Source: Mycobacterium heidelbergense
Lineage (GTDB): Bacteria; Actinomycetota; Actinomycetes; Mycobacteriales; Mycobacteriaceae
Length of the DNA: 32,000 nt
NCBI RefSeq assembly: GCF_010730745.1
Contig: NZ_AP022615.1
Coordinates: 3,353,512-3,385,511 of the forward strand
Direction of reading: 5' to 3'
The notes below the pieces were generated by a model. The model had not been told where the DNA came from, did not search any database, and saw nothing but the letters and a program-made list of their open reading frames with translations. Numbering within the stretch: the first letter of the stretch is position 1; the number at the start of each line of letters is the position of its first letter. A program made the translations under genes and the position numbers. Shown here in pieces: positions 2-16,248 of the stretch.

Positions 2-790
2 TGGGCCCAGGACGTGGCAGCGATGTACGGCTATGCCGGCTCCTCGGCGACCGCCGCGCGGGTAGCGCCCTTCGTCTCCCCGCCGCAGGCCGCCAACCCC
101 GTTGGGACGGCGGGGCAGGCCGCCGCGGTCGCCCAGGCCGTCGGCGCCGCGGCCGACGGACAGGCGCAGACGTTGCCACAGCTGACGTCCGTGGTGCCCG
201 CCCTGCTGCAAAGCCTGGCGGCGCCGACGGCCTCGGCCGATCCGTCGGCCCCCGCGTCGCTGGCGTCGTCGCTGAACACGATCCTCGGCTTTTCGACCGG
301 GCCGGTATCCCCGTTGTCGTATTTCACCGTCGCCGGCGTGCCGCAGTTGCTGGGTGTCCAGTGCTACTTGCTGCCGCAGGCCGGGGCGAACCTGGCCGCC
401 GCGGCCGGCAAGGCGACGGCGTTATCGGCCGGTGGAGGGGCTTTGGTTGCGGCGGGTTCGCAAGGGGTCCAACTGGGTTCGGCGGTATCGGCAAGCATCG
501 GTCGCGCGGGCCTCGTCGGGGGTTTGACGGTGCCGCAGGGCTGGGCGATGGCCGCTCCAGCGGTCAAGCCGGTGGCCGCGGTATGGGCGGAAAGCGGCCC
601 ATCCGCCGCTGCGGCAGCGGCCGCCACGCAAGGCGAAGGACCGTTGCTCGGCGGCATGGCCTTGTCGAGTCTGGCTGGGCGGGCGATGGCCGGTACCGGC
701 GGCGGTGCCGCCCGATCGGCAGGTGCTGGCGCGGCCGGCGAGGCCAGCGGTCCGGTCAACATCTTTATCGTGCCCGGCGGCGCGCAATGA
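2..790 (+). CDS. PPE family protein, C-terminal part (5' end lies upstream of the window)
   Basis: Frame 2 is open from the window edge to TGA 788-790. It begins [19 protein letters not shown], the end of the conserved PPE N-domain; the same WAQDA.AMY.YA motif occurs in the three complete PPE genes here. The tail is Ala/Gly/Ser-rich and contains [10 protein letters not shown] (SVP-type motif). Confidence 0.8.
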
Positions 791-1188
791 CCGCAATTGC
801 CCCAGACCTCCCGGCCGGTGTCGTTGTTGCGTTATTTGCTGATATTCCAGCAACTTTGCGCGGCAGAGATCGCGACAGAGATGAGGAGCGCATGCCTTTG
901 GAACCGCAGCCGGAAACGTTGCCGGATGCCAATGATGATCCGGCGGATGCCGGCTCGGCCCCGGCCGCCAAGGGCCCGGTAACGGCTCGTCCGCCAACGG
1001 TGTTGGATCCGGCGGCGACCGATGCGGTCTCGATATTGATCGCGATGCAGTTCGGCGCCTATGCCGCGATGTATCACACGGTCAGCGCCCAATTCGCGGC
1101 CGCCCACGAGACGTTTGTGAAAAGCCTTGCCATGGACGCAACCTCGGACGCGACCGGCGAGTCCGGCGACGCGTCGGCGGCCACCTGA
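787..1188 (+). CDS. PE-like protein with a divergent N-terminus (possibly degenerate PE partner of the downstream PPE)
   Basis: ATG 787 overlaps the upstream stop (ATGA), and the ORF ends 12 nt before PPE start 1201, the usual PE-PPE pair geometry. The C-terminal part ([41 protein letters not shown]) matches by eye the second helix of PE domains. The first ~70 aa lack the PE helix-1 signature and use many A/T-ending codons. An alternative start is ATG 892. Confidence 0.5.
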
Positions 1189-1200
1189 GAGGACGATCGG

Positions 1201-2577
1201 ATGTATTTCGGATTACTGCCGCCCGAGGTCAACTCCGGCCGGATGTACTCCGGTCCGGGCTCGGCGCCGCTGCTGGCTGCGGCGGAGGCCTGGGACGCGT
1301 CGGCGGCCCAGCTGCACGCGGCGCAGGCGGCGTACTCCTCGGTGATCTCCGGGCTGACGACGACGTGGCTGGGTCCGTCATCGGCGTCGATGGCGGCCGC
1401 GGCCGTGCCCTACATGGCATGGATGAGGGCCACGGCCGCCCAAGCGGAGCAGACCGCCGCACAGGCCCGGGCCGCCGCGGTGGCCTATGAGACGGCATTC
1501 GCGACGACGGTGCCGCCGCCGGTGATCGACGCCAATCGCAGCGAGCTGGCAATGTTGGTGGCCACCAACATCTTCGGACAGAACACCCCGGCGATCGCGG
1601 CAGTCGAGGCTCGGTACGGACAGATGTGGGCCCAAGACGCCACCGCGATGTCCACCTATGCCAGCCAGTCGACAGCCGCCACGACGATAACGCCGTTTGC
1701 CCCACCGCCGTCGACCACCGACCCGGGCGGGTTGCTCGGTCAGCTGCCGGCCACGTCGGTCGGTTCGAGCACGGAGACGCAGTTCTCCCAGCTGTTCGCC
1801 GCGGTACCCGCCGCGCTGCAAAGCTTCGGAACGATCATTGCCGGGCCCAATCCGGTTTCGGGCCTGCTGACCACCTTGCAGGACTTCGCCGGATTGCAGA
1901 GCTTGAGCTCGATCAGCGCCGACGTCGAAGTGATCCCCAAGGCGATCCTGCCGGCGAACGACGTCCTGATCAACACCATCATGGGGTTGGTTTTGGGGAC
2001 CAGGTGGCTTGACGGAGTGGCATCCGGGGCCGCGGCCGGCGGGGCCAACTCGGTCTTGGCGACGGGGCTCGGCTCCGGCGCGCACCTGGCGAGTTCGGCG
2101 GGCGGTGTGGTGGCGGCGAACGTCGGCCGCGCCGGCGTGGTCGGGGCGATGTCGGTTCCGCCGAGTTGGGCCACGGCCACCCCGGCAATCAGGACGGTCG
2201 CCGCGGTGCTCTCGGGCGCCGGCGAAAACGCCGTCCCGGCTGCGGCGGTGAGCGAGGGGACGCTGCTGAGTGGGATGGCGGTGGCGGGCATGGCCGGAAG
2301 CGCTCTGGGCGCGGCCGCGCCCCGGGCCCTCGCCGGTGCCGGCGCGCGATTGCATCGCACCCCACTCAAAGACGGCTCGACCAACGACGGCGAGTCGCCA
2401 GAAAACCTGCAACGTCTCGTCGCCGAAATGGCGGAGAAGCCAGACAACGTGCAGCACTGGCACACCGACTCGACACAGTTGGAGGGCCTCATCGCCAAAT
2501 TGAAGAAGAAACCCGGCATCCACGCGGTGCACCTGTCCGACGGCGAACCGAACATGACGCTACCCCGCGTCACCTAG
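1201..2577 (+). CDS. PPE family protein (SVP subtype) with a distinct charged C-terminal tail
   Basis: The N-terminus [21 protein letters not shown] is the canonical PPE motif. [12 protein letters not shown] and [10 protein letters not shown] (SVP motif) are present. The last 74 aa are non-Ala/Gly-rich and charged. Confidence 0.9.
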
Positions 2578-2663
2578 AAGCTGCCCGGGCCGGCGACTAC
2601 GGACAAGACCGTTCAGAACGCGACCGTAAAAGTACATATCCCCCGCGAAACGAGGTTATGACA

Positions 2664-3929
2664 ATGGATTATAGAGGTCACAACGGGAAACCGATTGTGG
2701 AACGTGTGTCCACCGAGAACGCTGCCGTCGAGATAAAAGGCATGCCGCGCGTTCCCATATCCAAGGCGATGGCGCATGAGGTCATCAGCCTTTCCTACGG
2801 ATTTCTCACGCCGCTGACGGGCTTCATGGGTCGGCAAGAGGTCGACGGGACGCTGGACAAGATGCAGCTTCCCGACGGGACGCTGTGGAGCATACCGATA
2901 GTCTTCGATATGTCCGCGGAGAGCATCGAGGACCTTGGGCTGGAGGAGGGGAGCGGCGCCGTCCTCGAATACCTGGGCGTGCCCATGGCGATCCTCGACG
3001 TTGCCGAGATATACGAGTACGACCTCGAGCGGATGGCCGAGAAAACGTATGGCACGGCCGATCCCCGACACCCCGGGGTGAAGAAGACGCTCGGCTATCA
3101 GAACAGGTTCGTCGGCGGTGACATCACGCTGATCAACGAGCCGGTCTTCAACGAACCGTTCAAGAGTTTTTGGCTGACTCCGAGGCAACATATGGACGCG
3201 TTGCTGGCGAAGGGCTGGAAGCACGTCGTCGCCCACCAGACACGCAACGTGCCGCACACCGGCCACGAGGCGCTGATGAAGCAGGCGTGGTTTGCCGCGA
3301 ACGAGGATATGCCCGTCGACAACCTGAATACGGGCGTGCTGGTGAATGCGATCATCGGCCAGAAGCGAGTCGGGGACTACATCGATGAGGCAATACTTTT
3401 GGCGCAGAACGCGCTGAGGACCAGCGGGTACTTCCGGGAACGCGTCCACATGGTGTCCTTCACGCTGTGGGACATGCGGTATGCGGGACCCAGGGAGGCG
3501 ATCTTCCACGCCATCCTGAGGACAAATCTTGGATGCACCCACCATATGTTCGGCCGCGATCACGCCGGCGTGGGTGACTTCTACGACCCGTACGATTCCC
3601 AGAATCTCCTCAATCAATACAGATCCGAGTTGGGCATCAAACCGGTGTTTCTCCGCGAAAACTGGTACTGCGCGGAATGTTTGGAAGTCACAAACTCTGC
3701 TCTGTGCGGCCATGACGCGAAGGCCGAAAGCTTTAGCGGCAGCCTGATCAGAAGCATTCTGACCGACGAAGTGAAACCGACGCAGAAGGTGATGCGGCAC
3801 GAGGTCTTCGACGTCGTGATGGAGTGTGCCGCCAAGCATGGCCAGGGTTCGCCCTTTGTGACCGAAGAATATCTGAAGGACCGGAGACCGATCTTTACGC
3901 TGGGGCACTTGGAGGGACTCGATTCATGA
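2664..3929 (+). CDS. sat: Sulfate adenylyltransferase, homo-oligomeric Sat type (no APS-kinase domain)
   Basis: HxxH nucleotidyltransferase motif in AHQTRNVPHTGHEALM and the FGRDHAGVG motif, both diagnostic of Sat-type ATP sulfurylases. An N-terminal PUA-like region precedes them, and there is a CAECLEVTNSALCGH Cys/His cluster. Start taken at ATG 2664 (GAGG at 2652-2655); ATG 2658 is also possible. Codons are visibly more A/T-ending than in the flanking genes. Confidence 0.85.
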   Translation: MDYRGHNGKPIVERVSTENAAVEIKGMPRVPISKAMAHEVISLSYGFLTPLTGFMGRQEVDGTLDKMQLPDGTLWSIPIVFDMSAESIEDLGLEEGSGAVLEYLGVPMAILDVAEIYEYDLERMAEKTYGTADPRHPGVKKTLGYQNRFVGGDITLINEPVFNEPFKSFWLTPRQHMDALLAKGWKHVVAHQTRNVPHTGHEALMKQAWFAANEDMPVDNLNTGVLVNAIIGQKRVGDYIDEAILLAQNALRTSGYFRERVHMVSFTLWDMRYAGPREAIFHAILRTNLGCTHHMFGRDHAGVGDFYDPYDSQNLLNQYRSELGIKPVFLRENWYCAECLEVTNSALCGHDAKAESFSGSLIRSILTDEVKPTQKVMRHEVFDVVMECAAKHGQGSPFVTEEYLKDRRPIFTLGHLEGLDS

Positions 3930-4234
3930 GTAAGAACGCCGACATCAAGATCAATGTATGGATCAACGACGAACGGCTGAAAGCGCTGGAAGACGCCGGG
4001 ATGGCGCAACTGGCAAAGGAGGTTTTCGCCGGAATGAAGCTGCTCCCGATTTCCGTGACCGGCGACCAGAAGGATCTCATTCTGCAGCGCTACCCTTCGG
4101 CGAAGTACGACTCCTCCACCACGGGCTCCATCGAGTTGCTGCCGAAGCGGGCCAAAGACAAGTTGCTGGAGTTCTCCATCAACATGCATTCGACGGGCCC
4201 GGAGGTGACGGATCGCTTCGTCAACGACGGCTGA
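3926..4234 (+). CDS. Hypothetical 102-aa protein translationally coupled to sat
   Basis: ATG 3926-3928 overlaps the sat stop TGA 3927-3929 (ATGA). It has the same lower-G+C codon style as sat. The protein is hydrophilic and Lys/Asp-rich (MSKNADIKINVWINDERLKALEDAG...) with no motif I recognise. Confidence 0.6.
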   Translation: MSKNADIKINVWINDERLKALEDAGMAQLAKEVFAGMKLLPISVTGDQKDLILQRYPSAKYDSSTTGSIELLPKRAKDKLLEFSINMHSTGPEVTDRFVNDG

Positions 4235-5004
4235 CCACACGTGATTAGGCCTCAGCGGCGGAGCAAGGGTTTGGAACCCAGCCGCCTTAACGGTCGTTGC
4301 GCGATCCCTGTTCGCGCCGTACGGGTATGGCGTCCACGCGGGGACGAAGTCACGCGGCTAGCTGGACGTACTGGTGAAGTCTGCTGGAAATCTCCTGTGT
4401 ATCAGCGATATTGAGTTGTCGAATGGTTTCAATTCGGATTGACTGGCAAGTAATAGAGTCAAGGAAGTTTTACAGGTGCGTTGCCGGCTTGGCAGCGCAC
4501 GATGGTGGTGGGGCTCGCCATAACCGCGCGTCGCGCACTGACGGCCAACGGTCCCTGCGGAACGGGTAAGTACGTGGCTGGCCAACCGTGCAGCCACATG
4601 TGACGCGGAGGAAGACCAAGTGGCCGTTCAATTTTCATTGAGCCCGGCGAGATTCGCCAGTTGGGTTCGCGGGGCCGGTTTCATCGGCTCCGGATGCTGG
4701 GAGCCGACTGATCGCACGAGCGCACCCGGGCGACATAAGAGGCCAGGGCGCCGCGGGCGCAAGCCTTCTCGAGCTGCCTTACTCGATGATGGGTGACTAG
4801 TCGGGCCCTCGTCCACGGGTCTACAGCGTGGGGTTGTTGGTGTACGCACTTTAGAACAAAGGTGCGTATTCATGTGAAGTGTAATGGAAATCGTTGCTAA
4901 TCGGAGGCCCAGAGGGCGTTGCCGGTTGGGCACGTGATCGGACTCGCTCAGCGGGCTCACCGCCGCGGATCGCCGTGTGGGGCCGGCCGCTGAAGGGAAC
5001 ACTG

Positions 5005-6150
5005 ATGCTGGATTACGGGACGCTGCCACCAGAAATCAACTCGGCCAGGATATATTCGGGTCCAGGCTCGGCGCCGATGATGGCTGCGGCGGCGGCCTGG
5101 GACATACTCGCCAACGGGTTGGATTCGGTCTCGCGGGGCTATTCCTCGGTGATCGCGCGGTTGCAGGGCGAAAGTTGGTCCGGGCCTGCGTCAGTCGCGA
5201 TGGCCAGTGCGGCCGCGCCGTATGTGGCATGGATGACGACCGTGGGAGCCCAGGCCGAGGAGGCCGCCAGTCAGGCTCGCGCCGCCGCGGCGGCCTACGA
5301 GGCGGCATTCGCCGCCACGGTGCCTCCCGCGCTTGTCACATCCAACCGCATCCAGTTGGCGAACTTGGTGGCCACCAACATCTTCGGACAGAACACCATG
5401 ATGATCGGGGAGACCGAGGCAGCCTACGAGGAGATGTGGGCTCAGGATGCCACCGCCATGTACACCTACGCGGCGTCGTCGTCGGCGGCCACGTCGCTGA
5501 GGGAATTCGGCGAGCCGCCACAGACGACCACCGCCGCCGGTCCGCCTGCCCAATCCGCCGGACAATCCCGGGCGACCCTGTCGCAGCTGATATCGGCTGT
5601 GCCGCAACAGCTACAGGCCCTCGCGGCAGCGGGATCTTCGGGCTCTTCCACATCGGCGGCGCCCACCTCGTTGGTGCCGTCGTCCTTGCTCACGGCCTTC
5701 AGCAGCTTCAATACCCTCACCGCGCCAATAAATCTCGGCGACGGCATCAGCCGCACGTACACGTCGGCGGGAAGCTTCGGGACCGGGCTGTTCCGATCCA
5801 ACGTCCAGGCGGCCGGCGATGCCGCCAAGGCGGCCAGCACCGCCGCGGGGCCCGGTCCGGTGTTTGCCAGCGCGGGCAACGCGACGACGGTCGGGAAACT
5901 GTCCGTCCCGCAGAGCTGGGCGGCGACAAATCCCGCGGCCGCCGCCATTGCCGAGCCGAATTGGTTGCCGGACTCCGAACTCGACGGTGGCCCGTCGTGG
6001 CAGGAAGTCCCGGCAACCAACATGTGGAACGGCGTCCCACCGGCGGGCGGCGGGAGCACGTCAGGGCTGTTGTCGCGTCCCTCGGTCAACAACGTGCTGC
6101 GCGTGGCGCCACGCCAATTCAAGATGCCCCGCCCTTCCCTTGGCGGCTAG
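5005..6150 (+). CDS. PPE family protein (SVP subtype)
   Basis: [45 protein letters not shown] and [10 protein letters not shown] are present. The C-terminus is [12 protein letters not shown]. Start is ATG 5005 within ORF 4894-6150. Confidence 0.9.
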
Positions 6151-6238: not shown

Positions 6239-7423
6239 ATGCTTGATTTCGGGGCGCTGCCGCCCGAGATCAATTCGGCCAGAATGTATTCAGGTCCGGG
6301 ATCGGGACCGATGATGGCGGCCGCGGCGGCGTGGGACGCGCTGGCCGCACAGCTGGAGTTGTATGCGGCCGGTTACTCTTCGACCCTCTCGGAGCTCCAG
6401 GGTCAGACGTGGTCGGGCGGAGCATCGATCGCGATGGCGACCGCGGCCGCACCGTATGTGGCGTGGGCGGCGACGACGGCGGCGCAGGCCGAGCAAGCCG
6501 CCGGCCAGGCCCGAACGGCGGCCGCCGCCTATGAGGCGGCATTCGCCGCGACGGTGCCCCCGCCGGTGGTCGCGGCCAACCGCATGCAGTTGGCGATACT
6601 GGTTGCCACCAACTTCTTTGGGCAGAACACACCGGCGATCGCGGCCACCGAGGCCGACTACGCCGAGATGTGGGCCCAGGATGCCGCCGCCATGTACGGC
6701 TATGCCGCGTCCTCGTCGGCCGCGACCGCGCTGACGCCGTTTCCCGAACCGCCGCGGACCACGAATGCCGGCGGCCAATCCGCCCAGGCGACCGCTGTGG
6801 CCCAAGCCGTGGGCACCTCCACGGGGCAGAGTCACGTAACGCTGCCGGAGCTGATGTCCGTCCTGCCGCACGAGCTGCAAACCCTGGCGTCAGGTGGGTC
6901 GGTGAACGGTTCCGCGGCGGACCCCACGCCGGCGGGCGCCTTCTCGTCGATCCTCACGGCCTTCAGCAATTTCGACATTCTTGTCGTCAGCCCGGCGCAA
7001 CCGTTTTGGTCGACGACCTACGCCGTATTCTCAACGGGGCAATTCGGGACGGGGCTTCGCTTGTCTCAGCTCCAGGCGGCCAAGGCCGCCGCCAAGGAGG
7101 CTACGTCTGAGGCCGACGTCCTGGGTTCGCGGGCCGCTCGCGGTGGCCCAGTGCTTGCGAGCGTGGGCAATGCGGCTCCGGTGGGGAAATTGTCCGTCCC
7201 GCAGAGCTGGGTGGCGCCGGATCAGGTCGCCAGTGCCGTCGGTGGGCCAACACCGTTGTCGGGAACGGATTTCCGGGCGGCCCCGGCCGCGAACGCAAAT
7301 CCACCGACGAGCGCGTGGGGCGCGTTGCCGACGGCGGCGACGGAGACGCGGCCCACGGGCGGCGTCGTATTGCGCAACGGACGTCGCCGCTTCACGATGC
7401 CCCGCCCCGCTATCGGCGGATAA
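6239..7423 (+). CDS. PPE family protein (SVP subtype), tandem paralogue of 5005-6150
   Basis: [45 protein letters not shown] and [10 protein letters not shown] are present. The C-terminus is [23 protein letters not shown] Shine-Dalgarno-like run lies upstream of ATG 6239. Confidence 0.9.
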
Positions 7424-8093
7424 CGCATCACGCTCAGCCCACCCGTCGTCAGTCGAAAGATCTTGCCGCCCTTGATGTTCACGACCGTAGACCTCACGGC
7501 GAAATGGCACGCTGCGTTTGCGAACCAACACACCTCCGGGAAATACGCGAATCCCGTTGCGCCGGAGGTCCCGAGGCCTGGCCAGAACCATAATGACGCG
7601 CGGCCGCCGATTGGACGTTCAGCGCTAACGCGTGCGGGACGAACAGGAAACGCTCAAGCAGCATACAGCCTGTCGTCAGTTTGACCGACCATGATCGCAA
7701 AAGAATCATGATGAGTAAAAATTCCCCAAAGAGGCAATTTGTAACATCGCAAGGACGGCAAGCGGCGGTGTGTGGATCGGCATCGCTAAAAGATGCGCAG
7801 TTCGTAGACGCCGATCGCATGGACCTGCTCGCAGTAGCATATACAGACGCTAATCGTCAACAATCGTCGGCGCCGCCGACCGCGTGGAACCGAACGAGCG
7901 CGAGCGGCTTCCCCTGTGGACGCCCGGGACAAGTGTCACGCCCACCTCCCGCAATCCTCTTTGGGCTTCTTCGGACGGACTTTCTTCCATCACATGGGTA
8001 TTCGCACGCGCGATATTTAGAGAAGGGCGGTTTTTGTGCGCCCACTGGCTCGAAACCGGCGAAAGCCTCTGAGCCGGAGCGAAGTTCGGCTGC

Positions 8094-9101
8094 GTGACGC
8101 CAAGGGTGCCAGAGTTTATGGCTGACCGAGGTTTGGCACTCCGCGATCGCCTCCTCGCGGAGACCGTCGCGCTGGCCTATATCGTGGTGGCAGCCCAGTG
8201 CGACGGCTGGCATTACCTGTTGTTCCCCGGGCTTGCGGCGCTTTCGCACGACGTATTGACCCGGCCGTGGGGAAGGTGGGCGAGTCAACCGGGGCGGCTC
8301 ATCGCTACGCCGGCCCTCGCGGCGGTCGTCGGGACGTCGATCACCCGGGAGCTTCGCTTCGGTGTGCCGGCCATTCTGGTCGTGGTCTGCGTGTGTGTGC
8401 TCCTGCTTGCCCTGCTCAACTCGGATATCGCCCCGGCTATCGCAGCCGGCGTGCTGCCACTCTTCCTAGGCATCAAGAGCTGGCTCTATCCCGCTTCCGT
8501 AGCGCTGAGCCTGGCGGTGCTGGTGCTCATTTTGGTGTCCTGGCAAAGGCATTGCCGGCGAAAGTACGCGCATGCCGGTGGGGCTTCGGCCCCGAACATC
8601 GACGATGTTCTCGAGACTGTTCCCACCGGAAATGCCTGGGTCCTGCCCTATTTCGCGTTTTTGACCGCGATGGCGTTCGGTGCGACGGCCTCGGGGCTGC
8701 GGCTGATCCTGTTCCCCCCGCTGATCGTCATCGCCTACGAGATGTTCGCCCACCCCACGACATGCCCCTGGGCGGGGAAGCCGCTGGCCCTTCCCGCCGC
8801 GTGCTTTCTGACGTCGGTCGCGGGATGGGTCGCGGTGAGCCTCTTCGGAAGCGGCGGTATCGCGGCCGCCTGCGCAATGGTCGCCGGCGTCGTCGTGCTG
8901 CGCCTCCTGAAACTTCATCTGCCGCCCGCGTTGGCGATCGGGCTGCTTCCGCTCGTCATCGGTTCGCCCAGCATCCAATACCCCCTTTCCGTTGCCATCG
9001 GGGCAGGAGCACTGACGCTCGCCCACCAGCTGTACCAACGATGGGTCCTCGGCCATGGCGGCGCCGGCCGGAACGCCCCCGATACATTGAGGAGTGTCTA
9101 G
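8094..9101 (+). CDS. Polytopic membrane protein, HPP-family-like with internal duplication
   Basis: About 8 hydrophobic segments. Two related halves each carry an (A/P)P-A-x-A-x-G-x-LPL element (SDIAPAIAAGVLPLFLG and LHLPPALAIGLLPLVIG), resembling the His-Pro-Pro region of HPP-family proteins. The start is uncertain (GTG 8094 or ATG 8118). Confidence 0.55.
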   Translation: MTPRVPEFMADRGLALRDRLLAETVALAYIVVAAQCDGWHYLLFPGLAALSHDVLTRPWGRWASQPGRLIATPALAAVVGTSITRELRFGVPAILVVVCVCVLLLALLNSDIAPAIAAGVLPLFLGIKSWLYPASVALSLAVLVLILVSWQRHCRRKYAHAGGASAPNIDDVLETVPTGNAWVLPYFAFLTAMAFGATASGLRLILFPPLIVIAYEMFAHPTTCPWAGKPLALPAACFLTSVAGWVAVSLFGSGGIAAACAMVAGVVVLRLLKLHLPPALAIGLLPLVIGSPSIQYPLSVAIGAGALTLAHQLYQRWVLGHGGAGRNAPDTLRSV

Positions 9102-10411
9102 TGTCGAACGCTCAATTGACTGCGGTCATATTTGTGCTTTTTGTGCTGGTCGGTCTGGCCCAATTGCTGGGATATCTATTCGTAAAGCTCGGTCAGCCGA
9201 AGGTCGTGGGGGAGATCCTGGCCGGCATCACACTCGGTCCGGCGCTGCTGGGCCGGTTGCCGTTCGTCGAGCACCTCATGAGCACCGCCAGGCACGATAG
9301 CCAGATCCTCAGTTTCGTCTACTGGCTCGGGCTCCTGTTGCTGATGTTCGTCTCCGGCGCCGAGGTGCAGCAGCTGTTCGGCCGGGGCGAGCGCCGGACC
9401 GTGAGTTGGCTCGTCGTCGTCGGGACCGGCGTACCGTTCCTGCTCGGGCTGACCTTCGGGTCCCATCTCATTCGTCCGAGCCTGGCCGGACCGCACGGCA
9501 ACCGCGTGTCCCTGATCATCATTCTGGCGGTGGGCGTCGCCGTCACTTCGGTGCCGGTGGTGTCGAAAATCTTTGCCGACCTGAAGATCCTGGACACACG
9601 TTTCGCGCGCCTCATCCTCGGCGTCGCCGTGCTCGAGGACATCGTGCTGTGGCTGGCGCTGGCGATCGCGACCTCCATCGCGGCGAAGTCGCATCTGAAT
9701 CCGTGGCTGATGTCGTTGCATCTGCTGGTGACGGTGGCTTATTTCGTTCTCGGGCTTACGCTTGTCCCCCGCGCCGTCAAGCGCATCAACAAGGCTCGCT
9801 GGAACGCGTTGGCGCGGTATTCGCCCACCGGCTACGCGATCGCGGTGTTGCTCGCTTACTGCGCGGTCGCCGGAGCGCTCGACGTCAACCTGGTGTTCGC
9901 CGCGTTCCTCGCCGGCTTTGCCCTCGTCGACAACGAACGCGGAATCTTCGAGGACTCCATCGGGGCGATCAGCAAGGTGTCCTTCGCCTTCTTCATTCCG
10001 GTCTACTTCGCGATCGTCGGCCTGAAGCTGGACCTCATCCGGGGCGTGTCGTTGCCGATGATGGCCATCTTCATCGTCGGCACCTGCGTGGTCAAAATGC
10101 TGTCGGTCGCGCTCGCCGGGCGGCTCGCCGGTTTCTGGGGCCTCGATCTGATCAACCTCGGGATCACCACCAACGCCCGCGGCGGCCCGGGCATCGTGCT
10201 GGCCAGCGTCGCGTTCGACGCCGGCATCATCAGCTCGAAGTTCTACACCACGCTGGTGGTCGCGGCCGTGCTCACCTCGCAGTTCGCCGGCGCCTGGATC
10301 GACTACGTGCTGCGTAAAGGCTGGCCGCTGTTGGGATCCGACGCGCCGCGGGACGCCGCGCGCGTGCCGCGCGCAAACGGCGATCGCGCCGTCGGCCGGG
10401 GGGCGGGATGA
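9101..10411 (+). CDS. Cation:proton antiporter (CPA2 / Na+/H+ exchanger family)
   Basis: GTG 9101 overlaps the upstream stop TAG 9099-9101, with GAGGAG at 9089-9094. The N-terminal GQPKVVGEILAGITLGPALLG is typical of Kef/NapA-type CPA2 transporters. There are about 12 hydrophobic segments and no C-terminal KTN/TrkA domain. The 8198-9100 part of the tracked ORF is a spurious extension. Confidence 0.85.
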   Translation: MSNAQLTAVIFVLFVLVGLAQLLGYLFVKLGQPKVVGEILAGITLGPALLGRLPFVEHLMSTARHDSQILSFVYWLGLLLLMFVSGAEVQQLFGRGERRTVSWLVVVGTGVPFLLGLTFGSHLIRPSLAGPHGNRVSLIIILAVGVAVTSVPVVSKIFADLKILDTRFARLILGVAVLEDIVLWLALAIATSIAAKSHLNPWLMSLHLLVTVAYFVLGLTLVPRAVKRINKARWNALARYSPTGYAIAVLLAYCAVAGALDVNLVFAAFLAGFALVDNERGIFEDSIGAISKVSFAFFIPVYFAIVGLKLDLIRGVSLPMMAIFIVGTCVVKMLSVALAGRLAGFWGLDLINLGITTNARGGPGIVLASVAFDAGIISSKFYTTLVVAAVLTSQFAGAWIDYVLRKGWPLLGSDAPRDAARVPRANGDRAVGRGAG

Positions 10412-10423
10412 TCGCGCGAGTCG

Positions 10424-11065
10424 TCACAGAGCGGTCAAGCCCACCGTGAGCAGGACGCAGCCGACCCCGGCCAGCAGGGCGGCCACCTCGATGCGGCGAC
10501 GCGACCGGATCCAGTTGTGCAAGGCCGTCATCCACGTGCGCGTGGTCCGGGGCGCCAGCAGGTACGCGAGCAGTGGGATCTCCACCAGCGCGAAGGCCAC
10601 GACGTTGAACACCAGCAGCGCGCCGACCTGTGTCATGGCCGCGGCGCCGGAGGCCAGAATGACGGCCAGCGCGGCCAGATAATCCACGGACGGCAGCGCG
10701 ATTCCCAGCCCGGCCACCCCCGCGACCCACAACGAAGGCCCGTGCAGCAGCCGTCGGGTCCACGTCGTGAGCTTCCCCGGCCCGTCGCCGCGTTTCATGA
10801 CGAGCAGCACGGCGGCGACCAACAGCGCCAGCACGCCGATGAAGATCTGGACCCTGGGCAACGTGAAGTACGTCGACCCCAGCAGCCGGCGTCGCAAGAC
10901 GAACAGGACGACCAGGCCGACGGTCGTTCCCATCGCGAAGCCGCCGCACAGCAATGCGAGCAGTTGCAGCAGCGGCCGGGGCCTGCTCAGCATCAGCACC
11001 GTCATGCCGATCCGGAACGGTTCGAGGCTCACGGCGAGGGCCATCACCAGGACGGTGATCCACAT
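10424..11065 (-). CDS. GAP-family (DUF2910-like) integral membrane protein
   Basis: 213 aa with about 6 TM segments. The N-terminus MWITVLVMALAVSLEPFRIGMTVLMLSRPRP resembles mycobacterial proteins annotated as GAP family. Starts at ATG 11065. It is convergent with the antiporter, 12 bp between stops. Confidence 0.55.
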   Translation of the reverse strand: MWITVLVMALAVSLEPFRIGMTVLMLSRPRPLLQLLALLCGGFAMGTTVGLVVLFVLRRRLLGSTYFTLPRVQIFIGVLALLVAAVLLVMKRGDGPGKLTTWTRRLLHGPSLWVAGVAGLGIALPSVDYLAALAVILASGAAAMTQVGALLVFNVVAFALVEIPLLAYLLAPRTTRTWMTALHNWIRSRRRIEVAALLAGVGCVLLTVGLTAL

Positions 11066-11233: not shown

Positions 11234-12361
11234 CTACGCGCTTACGCCCCAATGGAACACGCGCGAGGTGAGCAGGACAATGCCCAGCGAAACCGACGCG
11301 ACCACGGTGAGCCCTATCACCGCGACGACGAGCGGGCGCCACCCCGTGCGCGCGATCTGGCGAATGTCGGTGTTCAGGCCGACACCGGCAAAGGTCAGCA
11401 GGAACGCCCACTTCGACACGTTGGCCAGGTTGGCGGTCTGGCCCTTGGTCAGCCAGCCCGCGGTCGCGATCGCCGAGACCGCCAAGAAACCGAGCACGAA
11501 TTTCGGGAACTTCTTCCAGATGAACGCCGCCTTGGCCGTCGCGCCCGGGGCGATCTCGTCGGCCTGCCCGCGCGCGGCCCAATACAGCGCGAAGCCCAGG
11601 ACAACGAACCCGATCAGCGAGTTGCGGGTCGACTTGACCAGCACGGCGATCTTGCCGGCGTGGTCGGAGAACAGATAACCCGTGGCGGTGGTTTCGGCGG
11701 TGTTGTCCACCGCGAGCCCCGCCCAGATGCCGAATTCGCGATCCGTCAGGCCGATCGCATGTCCCAACGGCGGCAACACGAACAGTGCCACCGCGCCCAG
11801 CGCCAGGATCGCCGCGATGGCATACCCGACATCGGAGTTGCGGGCCCGGATCGCGCCCTTGGCCGCGATGATGGCCGACACCCCGCAGATCGACGTGCCG
11901 ATCGCCAGCAACGAGCCCAGCTTGCCGGACAACCCGAACGCGCGCGCGGCGACGATGATGATGGTTCCCGCGACCGTCATGTCCACCAGGATCTGGATCA
12001 GGCTCAGCCCGCCAAGTTTCGCGATATCGCCGAGCACGAATCGGGCTCCCAGCACCACGATCCCGGCCTTGAGCCAAAACTCGTAGGTCTGCACGCCGGG
12101 TCGAAATATCCGATGCAGGCCGACGGTATTGGTGATGAGCAGCCCAATCACGATGGCCCACAACACGTATTCGATATCGGGCACGCGCCAGTGTTCGTGT
12201 TTGGCCAGCGCTTTCCACCAGATCTCCGCGTATTTGCCCAACAGGCCCACGCCGATCAGCAGCAGGATGCCCGGCACGTAGTCCAGCGCCCGCCTGCTGG
12301 TGAAGGCGGGCTCGTCCACCGTCTCTTCCGGCTCGATGGACTCGATGCGAGTGGTGCTCAT
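11234..12361 (-). CDS. YeiH/UPF0324 family transporter (annotated in databases as putative sulfate exporter family)
   Basis: 375 aa with about 10 TM segments. Recognised by overall resemblance to the YeiH family, including [15 protein letters not shown] and [16 protein letters not shown]. Starts at ATG 12361. Confidence 0.65.
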
Positions 12362-12641: not shown

Positions 12642-14525
12642 TTAGCTCCGCGGGCGCGGGCTGACCTCGTCGAGCAGGACGATGACCCGCGCGGCCAGCT
12701 CGTCGATGTTGGCGCCTGTGGTATCGAGGACGAGGTCGGGGTTCTCGGGCGGCTCGTACGGCGCGTCGACCCCGGTGAGGCCCGTGAGCTCGCCGCGGCG
12801 GGCGCGCGCGTAGAGGCCCTTGGGGTCCCGCTTCTCGCATTCGGCCAGCGACGTGGCGACGTGCACCTCGATGAAGGGCAGCTTGGCGGCGTCGTTGAGG
12901 GCGCGGGCGGTGTCACGGTCGGACTTGAGCGGCGACACCAGCGACGCCAGCGCGACGACGCCCGCGTCGGCCAGCAGCCGGGTCAAATGGCCGACGCGCC
13001 TGATGTTTTCGGTGCGGTCGCCGGGGGAGAAGCCCAGGTCGTCGGACAGGCCGTGGCGCAGGTTGTCGCCGTCGAGCAGGTAGGCCACCCGCCCCGATTC
13101 GACGAGCGCGCGCTCCACCGCCACCGCGACCGTCGACTTGCCGGATGCGGGCAGCCCGGTGAACCAGATCGTCGCGCCCGCCTGTCCGGTGGCCCGCCAG
13201 CGGTGGCGACGGTCCAGCGCCGAAGGGTGCCAGCGGATGTCGGTGCGCGGGTGGGTGCCCGGCTTGACCTCCCGCGCCTCGATGACGGTGCCGGCGCCGA
13301 CGGTGTCGTTGGTGGCCTCGTCGATCAGGATGAACGCGCCGCTGTCGCGGTTGTCGGCGTAGCTGTCGGCGATGACGACGGAGCTGGTTCGCAGCGTCAC
13401 GGTGCCGATGTCGTTGAGCGCCAACTCGACTGGCCCGTCGAGCTCGTCGAGCGTTTCGGGGTCCAGCCGCGTGTGCAGCTCCTGCACGGTCGCGCGGACC
13501 GTCGTGGTGGTTTGCTTGAGCGCCAGCCGGTCGCCGGCCCGCAGCGGCGAGTCCACGAACCAGCACACGGTCGCGTCGAGCTCTCGGGCGAGCACCGGCC
13601 AAGTCGCGTCGTCGGCGCCGCTGACCAGCACGTCGCCGCGTCCCACGTCGATGTCGTCGGCCAGCTCGATCGAAATCGACAGCGGCGCAACGGCTGTGGC
13701 GCGGTCGTCGTCGAGGGTGTCCAGCGCGGTCACCGTCGAGCGGGTGCCGGCGGGCAGCGAGACCACCGGATCGCCGACGCGCAGCGTGCCCGCCGCGAGC
13801 CGCCCCGTGTAGCGGCGGCGGGCGTTGGCGGTCGGCCGCGACACCCACTGCACCGGCAACCGCAGCCGCGACGCTTCGGCCTGCGGCGCGGCCAGTTCCA
13901 CGCTTTCCAGGTACTCCAGCAGCGTGGGGCCGGTGTACCACGGGGTGCGGTCGGAGCGGTGCACGACGTTGTCCCCGTGCTTGGCCGCGATCGGGATCAC
14001 CGTGACGTCGATGTCGCCGAGGCGTGCCGCCAACTGGCGCAGCTGGTCTTGCACCCCGGCGAACGTGGCCGGGTCGAAGTCGATGAGGTCGATCTTGTTC
14101 ACCGTCGCGACAAAGTGCTTGATGCCCAACAGCTTTGCGATCCGCGCGTGCCTGCGGGTCTGCCGTAGCACCCCGGCGCGCGCGTCGACCAGCAGGATGG
14201 CCACATGCGCGTTGGAGGCGCCGGTGAACATGTTGCGGGTGTAGCGCTCGTGGCCGGGCGTGTCGGCCAGGATGTAGCTGCGGGTCTCGGTGGAAAAGAA
14301 GCGGTAGGCGACGTCGATGGTGATGCCCTGCTCGCGTTCGGCGCGCAGACCGTCCGACAGCGCCGCCAGGTCGGCGACGCCCTCGTCGTCGGTGACGGCC
14401 TCCAGGTGGTCGAGCGGCAGGCTGTCGGTGTCGTGCAGCAGCCGCCCGATCAGGGTGCTCTTGCCGTCGTCCACCGAACCCGCGGTGGCGATGCGCAGCA
14501 GCTGACGGGTGACGGTCGCGGTCAT
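12642..14525 (-). CDS. cysNC: Bifunctional sulfate adenylyltransferase subunit 1 (GTPase) / adenylylsulfate kinase
   Basis: GTPase motifs are GSVDDGKST, DTPGHERY and NKID. The C-terminal APS kinase domain has the P-loop FTGLPASGKST and LDGDNLRHGL. ATG 14525 overlaps the cysD stop by 1 nt (TGATG). The tracked ORF extension to 14711 is upstream read-through. Confidence 0.95.
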   Translation of the reverse strand: MTATVTRQLLRIATAGSVDDGKSTLIGRLLHDTDSLPLDHLEAVTDDEGVADLAALSDGLRAEREQGITIDVAYRFFSTETRSYILADTPGHERYTRNMFTGASNAHVAILLVDARAGVLRQTRRHARIAKLLGIKHFVATVNKIDLIDFDPATFAGVQDQLRQLAARLGDIDVTVIPIAAKHGDNVVHRSDRTPWYTGPTLLEYLESVELAAPQAEASRLRLPVQWVSRPTANARRRYTGRLAAGTLRVGDPVVSLPAGTRSTVTALDTLDDDRATAVAPLSISIELADDIDVGRGDVLVSGADDATWPVLARELDATVCWFVDSPLRAGDRLALKQTTTTVRATVQELHTRLDPETLDELDGPVELALNDIGTVTLRTSSVVIADSYADNRDSGAFILIDEATNDTVGAGTVIEAREVKPGTHPRTDIRWHPSALDRRHRWRATGQAGATIWFTGLPASGKSTVAVAVERALVESGRVAYLLDGDNLRHGLSDDLGFSPGDRTENIRRVGHLTRLLADAGVVALASLVSPLKSDRDTARALNDAAKLPFIEVHVATSLAECEKRDPKGLYARARRGELTGLTGVDAPYEPPENPDLVLDTTGANIDELAARVIVLLDEVSPRPRS

Positions 14526-15448
14526 CAAAAGTAGCCCTCTCGCTTGCGGTCCTCCATCGCGGCGGCCGAGGTGCGGTCGTCGGCGCGCGTCTCGCCGCGC
14601 TCGGAGACCGTGGCCGCGGAGATCTCGGCGATGACACCGGAGATCTCGGTGGCCCTGGAACGCACCGCCCCGGTGATGGTCAGGTCGCCGACGGTGCGGT
14701 ACCGCACCCACTCCACGGCGGAGGTTTCGCCATGCCGCGGCGCGGCATGCTCCGACACCGCGAGCAGGATGCCGTCGCGCTCGAACACCTCCCGCTCGTG
14801 CGCGTAGTAAATCGACGGTATCTCAAGGTTTTCCAGCTCGATGTAGCGCCACACGTCGAGCTCGGTCCAGTTGCTCAGCGGGAACACCCGCACCTGCTCG
14901 CCCCTCTTGATCCGGCCGTTGTAGAGCGACCACGGCTCGGGGCGCTGCGCGCGCGGGTCCCACTGGCCGAACTCGTCGCGGAAGCTCAGGATGCGTTCCT
15001 TGGCGCGGGCGCGTTCCTCGTCGCGGCGGGCGCCGCCGAAGGCCGCGTCGAAGCCGCCGGCCTCCAGCGCGTCGAGCAGCGTGCGGGTCTGCGCCCGGTT
15101 GCGTGAGGCCCTGGGCCCGGGGTCGGGGACGCGGCCGTTGTCGATGGATTCCTGGACCGAGGCGACGATCAGCTTGTGCCCCCGGCCGGTGACCCTGCGG
15201 TCGCGGAATTCGATCACCTCGGGAAAGTTGTGGCCGGTGTCGACGTGCATCACCGGGAATGGCAGGGGCAGCGGCCGAAAAGCCTTTTCCGCCAGGCGAA
15301 GCAGCACGATCGAGTCCTTGCCCGCCGAAAACAGCAGGACGGGCCGCTCCAGCTCGGCGACGACCTCGCGGATGATGTGCACCGCCTCGGCTTCCAGCAG
15401 CCGCAGTTCGTCGACTTGCCGCGTTTCTGTCGGCGCGGTCGCGGTCAC
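14525..15448 (-). CDS. cysD: Sulfate adenylyltransferase subunit 2
   Basis: PAPS-reductase-fold motif LLFSAGKDS, plus [10 protein letters not shown] and [23 protein letters not shown] 15448 overlaps the stf0 stop (GTGA, 15445-15448). Confidence 0.9.
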
Positions 15449-16248
15449 GTCGGTAGCCCCTCTCTCTCGGCGTCGGCCCGGTAGCGGTCCACCCACTCGT
15501 CGGAACGCTGGTCGGCCTGTCGCTCCAGCACCGGGTGGGGCGCCAGCCGCGGGTCGAGGCCAAGCTCCCCGAGAATGGTGCCCACCACCTGAGTCAGATT
15601 GCGCCACAACACCGGATAGGAGATCTCCATGGGTTTGATGTCCTCTTCGGCGAACCAGTTTCGCCAACCCTGTTCCTGGGCGCGCAGCATGGTGACGACG
15701 TGGGCGATCGCCCCGGGGTGATAGGTGGCGCGCGCATCGCGGACCGGATCGGGCCTGCCCCGCCACACCCGCGTCTGCACCGCCCGCCAGAACGACACGG
15801 CCTGCGACACCACGTCGGGCCGATAGACATAGACCAGGAGCGGTTCCTCGCCGATCACGTCGCGGATCGCGGCCAGCAGGCCGTCGCCGGAGCGGTCCGG
15901 CAGTTCGCGGGCGCGATTCAACAGCAGCGGCGTCTGGTTCCACATCAGCTTGCCGCCCCACACGCCGTTCGGTGTCCTCCCCACGGTGCGGATGTAGTCG
16001 CGCCAGGTCGTCGCCGGCGCGAGGTCGGGCTTACCCTCGTCGAGCGGATCGAGCAGGCTCAGGATCGACTCGTCGTCCACGCCGGCGAACCATTCCCGCG
16101 GCTGCGGGGCCTGGCTGGTGGCCGGCAGATATTGGAAGAACTCCTGGGGTTCGCCGGCCACGCCGGTCGCGCGCAGCGATTCCACCAGCAGCGTGCTGCC
16201 GCTGCGCTGGGAAGCCAGCACCAGGTACGACGACGGGCCTTCGGTCAC
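15445..16248 (-). CDS. stf0: Stf0-type sulfotransferase (trehalose 2-sulfotransferase family)
   Basis: 267 aa. [31 protein letters not shown] (PAPS-binding 5'-PSB-like loop), [10 protein letters not shown] and [14 protein letters not shown] match my recollection of M. tuberculosis Stf0 (Rv0295c). The start is GTG 16248. Confidence 0.85.

Follow-up and report, generated by a model that had tools for sequence, protein, structure and literature searches.

Sulfate activation in mycobacteria is textbook CysD/CysNC. In Mycobacterium tuberculosis this heterodimeric, GTP-driven enzyme set makes adenosine 5'-phosphosulfate (APS) and then 3'-phosphoadenosine 5'-phosphosulfate (PAPS). Homo-oligomeric ATP sulfurylases (Sat), which also yield APS, have an unrelated fold, and solved representatives are 1V47 from Thermus thermophilus and 8A8D from Methanothermococcus thermolithotrophicus, whose domain III binds zinc (PMC10322725). 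In dissimilatory operons sat is found in the arrangement sat-(small open reading frame)-aprBA(-qmo), and a passage of PMC3949148 mentions a 'Sat-ORF2-AprAB' operon in Archaeoglobus fulgidus. PE22/PPE36 of M. tuberculosis has been described as a sulfate conduit, and PE/PPE proteins have been tied to sulfate supply and sulfolipid levels (preprint 10.64898/2026.06.04.730267). The subject of this work is a 32,000-nucleotide stretch of the Mycobacterium heidelbergense genome (contig NZ_AP022615.1; called here the window, to which all coordinates refer), in which a sat gene is followed by a gene of the DUF6955 family and lies in the same window as a CysD/CysNC set coupled to stf0. The function best supported by the comparisons described below would be GTP-independent APS synthesis for a dedicated cluster of PAPS formation and sulfation, a reading to which we assign a probability of roughly 0.6.

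The locus is built around three elements:

2664..3929, plus strand: sat, predicted homo-oligomeric ATP sulfurylase of 421 aa with a putative zinc-type Cys3-His domain III (Pfam, NCBIfam, structure alignment)
3926..4234, plus strand: DUF6955 gene, 102 aa (Pfam PF22271, 113 bits)
4353..4637, plus strand: conserved leader of about 285 bp, 5' of a pair of PPE genes (BLAST copies, alignments, covariance model)

An earlier model-made reading of this DNA, the first-pass annotation, had reported a Sat-type protein encoded between two PPE genes. The open reading frame is indeed there and intact. Its likely start is the ATG at 2664, which has a GAGG sequence 8 nt 5' of it; the other ATG, at 2658, would give a protein of 423 aa, and the stop is at 3929. 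The product contains the Pfam domains PUA_2 (PF14306, 143 bits) and, after it, ATP-sulfurylase (PF01747, 242 bits), both near full length, and it matches over its full length the curated NCBIfam models NF003166 (481 bits, cut-off 387) and TIGR00339 (354 bits, cut-off 323). The best solved matches were 8A8D (E 7e-84) and 1V47 (E 9e-55), with which the mycobacterial protein shares the three-domain layout and, identically, QTRNVPH-GHE and GRDHAGVGD. The stretches QTRNVPHTGHE, GRDHAGVGD and C-x2-C-x8-C-x-H aligned residue for residue with both structures, so that the catalytic motifs named by the first-pass annotation (HxxH and GRDHAGVG) hold. Among the 120 nearest homologues GRDHAGVG was invariant (120/120), the motif Q[TS]RNxPHxGH was present in 119 (as QTRNVPHTGH in 105 and as one-residue variants in 14), and the Cys3-His motif C-x2-C-x8-C-x-H in 108. 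Domains, model cut-offs and catalytic motifs thus agree in identifying the product as a genuine homo-oligomeric Sat (EC 2.7.7.4), as far as sequence can tell. With such an enzyme encoded in addition to CysD/CysNC, to which it is unrelated as the earlier reading had stated, the window would hold the second route to APS that this reading had proposed.

The cysteine-histidine cluster had also been taken for a zinc site. The segment CAECLEVTNSALCGH aligns with the metal-site region of 8A8D and 1V47, and its C-x2-C-x8-C-x-H spacing is that of 8A8D; by this putative site in domain III the enzyme would belong to the zinc-binding subgroup of the T. thermophilus type. Unlike the two solved enzymes, the mycobacterial Sat comes from a mesophile; it also has a DUF6955 partner gene. 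Since the host is a mesophile, a purely thermostabilising role of the zinc site is unlikely. Public genomes already carry an annotation of the gene, which in that sense is not new; a literature search for sat in mycobacteria found no prior description. The closest Sat among the GTDB species representatives is 89% identical to that of the window, whose exact sequence is not among them.

Besides Sat, the block contains a second gene, which the first-pass annotation had missed along with the PE gene at 787-1188. The ATG of the DUF6955 gene at 3926 overlaps the sat stop codon (ATGA), and the two genes are probably translationally coupled. DUF6955 was found directly 3' of sat in every homologous locus examined, 65 or more of them mycobacterial, often with overlapping codons. 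Between archaea and mycobacteria the proteins have a mean column identity of 70%, and 20 columns are invariant. The family is small, with 604 clusters in a set of 5.8 billion and, out of 1.84 billion proteins, 53 representatives at 50% identity; it also occurs in Thermodesulfobium. The AlphaFold (AF2) model is of the alpha/beta type, with a mean confidence (pLDDT) of 88.7; compared with the solved structures in the PDB it gave no significant fold match, and a literature search found no paper that mentions the family. A 5459-aa protein (P0278) that had come up as a possible member was spurious, with seven 8-bit profile matches in an S/T-rich repeat protein. In Mycobacterium ulcerans only a 69-aa fragment of DUF6955 (P0195) was seen, on 381 contigs, probably a pseudogene in a reduced genome. 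Because DUF6955 is kept beside sat whether the consumer of APS is AprBA or CysC, Sat itself is its most likely target or partner, and the family may supply a part that has been missing from descriptions of the first step of dissimilatory sulfate reduction.

The first-pass annotation had concluded that this Sat has no APS kinase of its own. That absence was an effect of the window edge. The DUF6955 protein of the window is 100% identical to one of M. heidelbergense, and this match led to the contig used for comparison. This M. heidelbergense contig (L076, whose coordinates are converted to those of the window by a 6075-nt offset) extends to the left of the window, and there a stand-alone cysC lies 4.2 kb upstream of sat, just outside the window, together with cysQ and a sulfotransferase gene. 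Both assignments are above the model cut-offs (CysQ: TIGR01331, 239 against 229; CysC: NF003013, 274 against 163). The gene order on L076 is NarK-like transporter of the major facilitator superfamily (MFS), CysQ, CysC, Sulfotransfer_1, PPE-PE-PPE, Sat, DUF6955, leader and PPE-PPE, continued further 3' by a membrane protein, an Na+/H+ exchanger-family protein, Sap, YeiH, cysNC, cysD and stf0. CysQ, CysC, Sulfotransfer_1 and Sat, the set expected of a PAPS-dependent sulfation cluster, are thus encoded together.

The same association recurs in relatives. A scan of one genome per species yielded 69 Mycobacteriaceae loci, one of which is a 2-kb fragment too short to show the pair; sat-DUF6955 was present in all of the 68 others. 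In most loci the pair adjoins the same genes for a PucR-type regulator and an aldehyde dehydrogenase as in the window. In about 62 loci cysC and sat are no more than 10 kb apart; cysC is directly 5' of sat in about 52 and divergent in six. Many loci also carry the MFS transporter, PPE pairs and, 3' of DUF6955, a sulfotransferase gene of about 330 aa. The sulfotransferase and the PPE-PE-PPE trio intervene between cysC and sat only in the M. heidelbergense lineage and in locus L007; the trio is found 3' of the sulfotransferase in L007, L039, L043 and L066. Pairwise distances between Sat proteins were correlated with those between the flanking aldehyde dehydrogenases (Mantel r = 0.60, a value reached in 0/2000 permutations), and the distances of the two flanking genes were correlated with each other at 0.78. 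Taken with the conserved flanks and with the monophyly of the mycobacterial proteins (100/100 bootstraps, see below), this correlation argues that sat-DUF6955 has been inherited mostly vertically. One genome, that of Mycolicibacter icosiumassiliensis, has two sat-DUF6955 copies in different contexts (L049 and L060), with Sat proteins 81% and 72% identical to that of the window; in L049 a copy of the leader stands directly 5' of sat.

In neighbour-joining trees the mycobacterial Sat proteins formed one clade, nested among proteins of Thermoplasmata, Micrarchaeia and Desulfofundulus, all from low-G+C genomes. The nearest sequence from outside the mycobacteria belongs to a Thermoplasmataceae genome (74% identity), on a contig that is clearly archaeal by its other genes; it is followed by other Thermoplasmata (66-67%), Micrarchaeia (61%), Thermoplasmatales (59%) and Desulfofundulus (57%). 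Thermoplasmata have the order aprB-aprA-sat-DUF6955 beside TauE-type exporters, DUF6955 is 3' of sat in Thermoplasmatales too, and the arrangement sat-DUF6955-aprB-aprA-qmoA-qmoB was seen in Desulfofundulus and on a metagenome contig. The mycobacterial locus resembles these dissimilatory operons in the Sat clade (57-74% identity) and in the position of DUF6955 directly 3' of sat, and differs from them in that no aprBA or qmo genes lie near sat, whose partners are instead cysC, cysQ and a sulfotransferase gene: tblastn with archaeal AprA and AprB gave no match in the window or within 10 kb of sat in any of the 69 Mycobacteriaceae loci. By clade the mycobacterial enzyme belongs with the Sat of dissimilatory Sat-AprBA(-Qmo) modules; the adjacent aprBA genes are absent. 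On these grounds the pair appears to descend from modules of the sat-DUF6955-aprBA type found in Thermoplasmata archaea and in sulfate reducers that are Gram-positive, and we interpret it as the first step of a dissimilatory pathway re-used with an APS kinase. ORF2 (AF1668) of the A. fulgidus operon may be a further DUF6955 member.

These observations are consistent with the following course of events and division of labour. The ancestor of a large slow-growing group of Mycobacteriaceae would have acquired sat-DUF6955 once, from a low-G+C archaeal or Gram-positive donor; the APS reductase partner would have been lost, or never been present, in mycobacteria, and the pair built into a cluster that makes PAPS for sulfation. 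The NarK-like MFS protein may be the anion transporter of the cluster. Sat would convert ATP and sulfate into APS and pyrophosphate (PPi) without GTP, CysC would phosphorylate APS to PAPS, the Sulfotransfer_1 enzyme would consume PAPS, and CysQ would remove the by-product 3'-phosphoadenosine 5'-phosphate (PAP). The PE/PPE genes would be recurrent members of the cluster. By these results many non-tuberculous species, forming a large group, retain besides CysD/CysNC a Sat of dissimilatory descent, predicted to work without GTP, that is linked to its own kinase, PAP phosphatase and sulfotransferase; this points to an undescribed sulfated product of the envelope. Most worth following, in our view, are the partnership of Sat with DUF6955, the descent from dissimilatory modules and the leader, described below, that several units have in common.

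Several facts weigh against the proposal of a dedicated sulfation cluster. In this genome 4.1 kb of PPE-PE-PPE separate sat from cysC and the sulfotransferase gene, and scans of positions 2300-5100 for consensus promoters and terminators gave nothing useful, so co-transcription of sat with these genes is only putative. The CysD-CysNC set coupled to stf0, 9 kb away, could supply PAPS alone. The PPE proteins are of PPE-SVP types and not PPE36 orthologues; a few deep-branching copies (L051, L052 and L060) lack cysC within 10 kb; all Sat trees were made by neighbour-joining only, and the sister relation to one Thermoplasmatota group is weak (36/100 bootstraps). The copies without a nearby cysC would fit a different function, namely a second assimilatory route with no link to sulfation, in which Sat provides APS for CysH, and through it for cysteine and mycothiol, under abundant sulfate or a shortage of GTP. 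It is established that mycobacterial CysH reduces APS and not PAPS, so that a kinase is unneeded, and the closest solved relative of the enzyme serves assimilation in a methanogen. However, the genes for CysC, CysQ and sulfotransferases, to which sat is closely and repeatedly linked, would be of no use in an APS-reductase route, and neither cysH nor a sulfite reductase gene was seen in any locus. We therefore regard a purely assimilatory role as possible but unlikely. Feeding of CysH is also compatible with the sulfation reading, as APS could supply both branches.

The descent from aprBA-linked modules, some of which in Thermoplasmata lie beside TauE-type sulfite exporters, could also suggest that Sat works in reverse as in sulfur oxidisers, turning APS and PPi into sulfate and ATP for the detoxification of sulfite or APS or for energy conservation. 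Without aprB and aprA, which were missing from the window and the 69 loci over the range given above, sulfate activation itself would be the only source of APS, and the reverse direction appears improbable. Still less probable, in our estimate, is that sat-DUF6955 is a decaying relic, redundant beside CysD-CysNC. The fragment in M. ulcerans and the deletion of the local sulfotransferase gene 3' of DUF6955 in this genome would agree with decay, but the ORFs are intact, Sat matches its family models over the full length, the catalytic motifs are kept in the 120 nearest homologues, and DUF6955 retains its 20 invariant columns across archaea and bacteria.

The remaining genes of the region are the following:

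14..790, plus strand: PPE gene, 3' part only; the complete gene (404 aa) begins left of the window (L076 gene calls, Pfam PPE; open reading frame)
787..1188, plus strand: PE gene, 133 aa (L076 6862-7263, Pfam PE)
1201..2577, plus strand: PPE-SVP gene, 458 aa, directly 5' of sat (Pfam PPE 219 bits, PPE-SVP)
5005-6150 and 6239-7423, plus strand: PPE-SVP pair downstream of the leader (Pfam)
8036..8076, plus strand: 3' remnant of a sulfotransferase gene, the gene of about 330 aa that follows DUF6955 in relatives (tblastn, blastn)
8118-9101, plus strand: membrane protein of unknown family (gene calls)
9101-10411, plus strand: Na+/H+ exchanger-family protein (gene calls)
10424-11065, minus strand: Sap, sulfolipid-1-addressing protein family (Pfam SfLAP, 206 bits)
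11234-12361, minus strand: YeiH-family putative sulfate exporter (Pfam Cons_hypoth698, 301 bits; TIGR00698 match below cut-off)
12642-14525, minus strand: cysNC (Pfam GTP_EFTU and APS_kinase)
14525-15448, minus strand: cysD (gene calls/Pfam)
15445-16248, minus strand: stf0 (Pfam Stf0, 353 bits)

In the first-pass annotation the sat segment was seen as a horizontally acquired islet of lower G+C content, with many A/T-ending codons, inside a PPE array. The lower G+C content was confirmed (0.585 in sat and 0.573 in DUF6955 against 0.64-0.74 in 19 other genes of the window), and PPE genes do lie on both sides. The codons told otherwise. G+C at third codon positions (GC3) was 0.778 in sat and 0.825 in DUF6955, inside the window range of 0.73-0.94, and the log-likelihood of synonymous choice per codon, calculated with the usage of the other genes, was -1.03 and -0.88, respectively, where the other genes gave -0.76 to -1.21. 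The deficit is confined to codon positions 1 and 2 (G+C at second positions, GC2, 0.39 and 0.36) and thus reflects amino-acid composition. It is common to all orthologues: 65 mycobacterial Sat genes had mean values of 0.60 for G+C, 0.38 for GC2 and 0.83 for GC3, and their neighbour genes a GC3 of 0.86-0.89. In archaeal and Firmicute homologues GC3 was 0.37-0.63. Low GC2 together with typical GC3 points to a transfer long enough ago for the silent sites to have been ameliorated, not to a recent island. What stands of the earlier claim is the foreign origin, suggested by the nesting of the clade among archaeal and Desulfofundulus proteins. A recent acquisition is contradicted by the conserved chromosomal position in dozens of species and by Sat distances congruent with those of the flanking genes. 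Nor were marks of mobility found: no tRNA was detected, there were no direct repeats flanking the sat segment (the only repeats around it being PPE paralogy), and the gene calls of the window and L076 include no integrase. With typical codon usage, presence that is not patchy and no hallmarks of mobility, a recent genomic island was rejected, and an islet specific to this strain or species has, in our view, hardly any probability left.

The PPE genes themselves look like later or mobile partners rather than the recipient that the first-pass annotation had made of them. What it had called an array is, upstream of sat, a PPE-PE-PPE unit. In relatives the order is sat-DUF6955-sulfotransferase-membrane gene, and the membrane protein and Na+/H+ exchanger genes (8118..10411) form a pair conserved 3' of the cluster. 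In the window the 41-bp stretch at 8036-8076, just before the membrane gene, corresponds to the end of this sulfotransferase gene, with 9/10 residues matching by tblastn and 85-93% identity over 35-42 bp by blastn to the gene end in L062, L068, L046, L048 and L004. No remnants of cysC, of the MFS gene or of a full sulfotransferase gene were found inside the window. The position of the remnant implies that the PPE pair and its leader moved into an older sat-DUF6955-sulfotransferase arrangement, and the remnant probably marks the deletion or rearrangement that brought the pair in; it would be the PPE genes, and not sat, that arrived late.

The AT-rich patch at 4380-4470, to which the earlier reading had drawn attention as part of the islet, is real and belongs to the 5' part of a conserved, repeated leader that this reading had overlooked. 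The leader contains the following parts:

4358-4470, plus strand: promoter/operator-like block with the direct repeat AGCTGGAC / (A/T)GCTGGAA, then TTGACT
4495-4564, plus strand: crcB-like core, with P1 at 4504-4519 and a pseudoknot of 4510-4515 with 4550-4555
4576-4595, plus strand: hairpin
4607-4612, plus strand: GGAGGA

In the window the direct repeat reads AGCTGGAC / AGCTGGAA. Relatives carry one to four leader copies per locus. Counting these and the copy of the window, 53 of 54 point at, and sit just 5' of, a gene of the cluster: the NarK-like MFS gene (25 copies), a PPE pair (about 22), cysC (5) or sat (1); the remaining copy was unassignable by crude gene calls. A covariance model (R1) built on the core at 4484-4626 gave 56 matches, all in mycobacterial loci, the other two being those of L076, 5' of its MFS gene and of its PPE pair. 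Orthologous PPE pairs (74-84% identity in the N-terminal domain) have the same leader in about 20 loci. Because MFS, cysC/sat and PPE units share one leader, they probably form one regulon. The leader is thus a candidate cis-regulatory element that would tie the PPE pair to the sulfate cluster. PE/PPE genes in a sulfate cluster with a common leader would fit the emerging view of these proteins as solute channels. In comparison with PE22/PPE36, the PE/PPE genes here likewise lie within a setting of sulfate supply, inside the sulfate-activation cluster itself; they differ in that the PPE proteins are 381-458-aa PPE-SVP types with no PPE36 orthologue among them.

The leader looks like a diverged fluoride-riboswitch fold placed before non-fluoride genes. 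The Rfam family RF01734 (fluoride riboswitch) scored 16.2 bits with the window copy and 22.3 bits with that of L026, below the gathering score of 34, and in these two independent copies the alignment to the 64-nt model was full length. Rfam searches at a permissive E-value brought no family to its gathering score. In 22 copies 94% of the cells of P1, the loop-tail pseudoknot and P3 were paired, compared with 31-54% with slid partners; most pairs show no variation, and only two show compensatory changes. The P1 hairpin of RF01734, its loop-to-tail pseudoknot and its AACCGC/P3 segment seem to be preserved, the pseudoknot despite differences from the family consensus on both of its strands. In contrast, the 3' linker, which in the riboswitch builds the fluoride/Mg site, is shorter and reads CAAC instead of UGAUGA, and the genes that follow are MFS, PPE and cysC/sat, not crcB or eriC. 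A literature search for fluoride-riboswitch variants in mycobacteria found no prior description. Taken to its furthest extent, this picture would make the leader a new class of cis-regulatory RNA on the crcB fold with a rewired ligand pocket, unite the sat operon, the NarK-like transporter and the PPE pairs in one anion- or sulfur-responsive regulon, with the PPE proteins as outer-membrane conduits for sulfate or the sulfated product, and make DUF6955 an obligatory partner subunit of dissimilatory-type Sat from sulfate reducers to mycobacteria. We consider this combination speculative and, as a whole, rather unlikely.

A short open reading frame beginning at GTG 4620 might have encoded a leader peptide or small protein; as a conserved protein it was dismissed, since only its first seven or so codons are alike among copies and the lengths range from 7 to 255 aa. 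The stretch 4232-4352, after DUF6955, folds no better than shuffled sequences (z = -0.13). A 17-nt near-repeat at 4478-4494 and 4916-4932 (GCGTTGCCGGCTTGGCA / GCGTTGCCGGTTGGGCA) has its first copy immediately 5' of the leader core and its second about 75 nt ahead of the start of the PPE gene; chance may account for the similarity.

On the minus strand the cysNC and cysD genes were found where the first-pass annotation had placed the set. At both junctions of stf0, cysD and cysNC the stop codon of one gene overlaps the start of the next (GTGA, TGATG), an arrangement that suggests a single operon. Between the CysC domain of CysNC and the stand-alone CysC encoded in the sat cluster the identity is only 46%. 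Where related loci extend as far as stf0 (L002-L004, L016 and L062), no cysD-cysNC adjoins this gene; the coupling of the trehalose sulfotransferase gene stf0 to the CysDNC set seems specific to the lineage of M. heidelbergense. Sap and the YeiH-family protein are encoded between the Na+/H+ exchanger gene and cysNC, and with them a sulfur theme extends over the whole 25-kb region. Between the PPE pair and the membrane gene, at 7558-7755, there is a second AT-richer non-coding stretch, with matches of about 70% in one or two places each in L026, L043 and L066.

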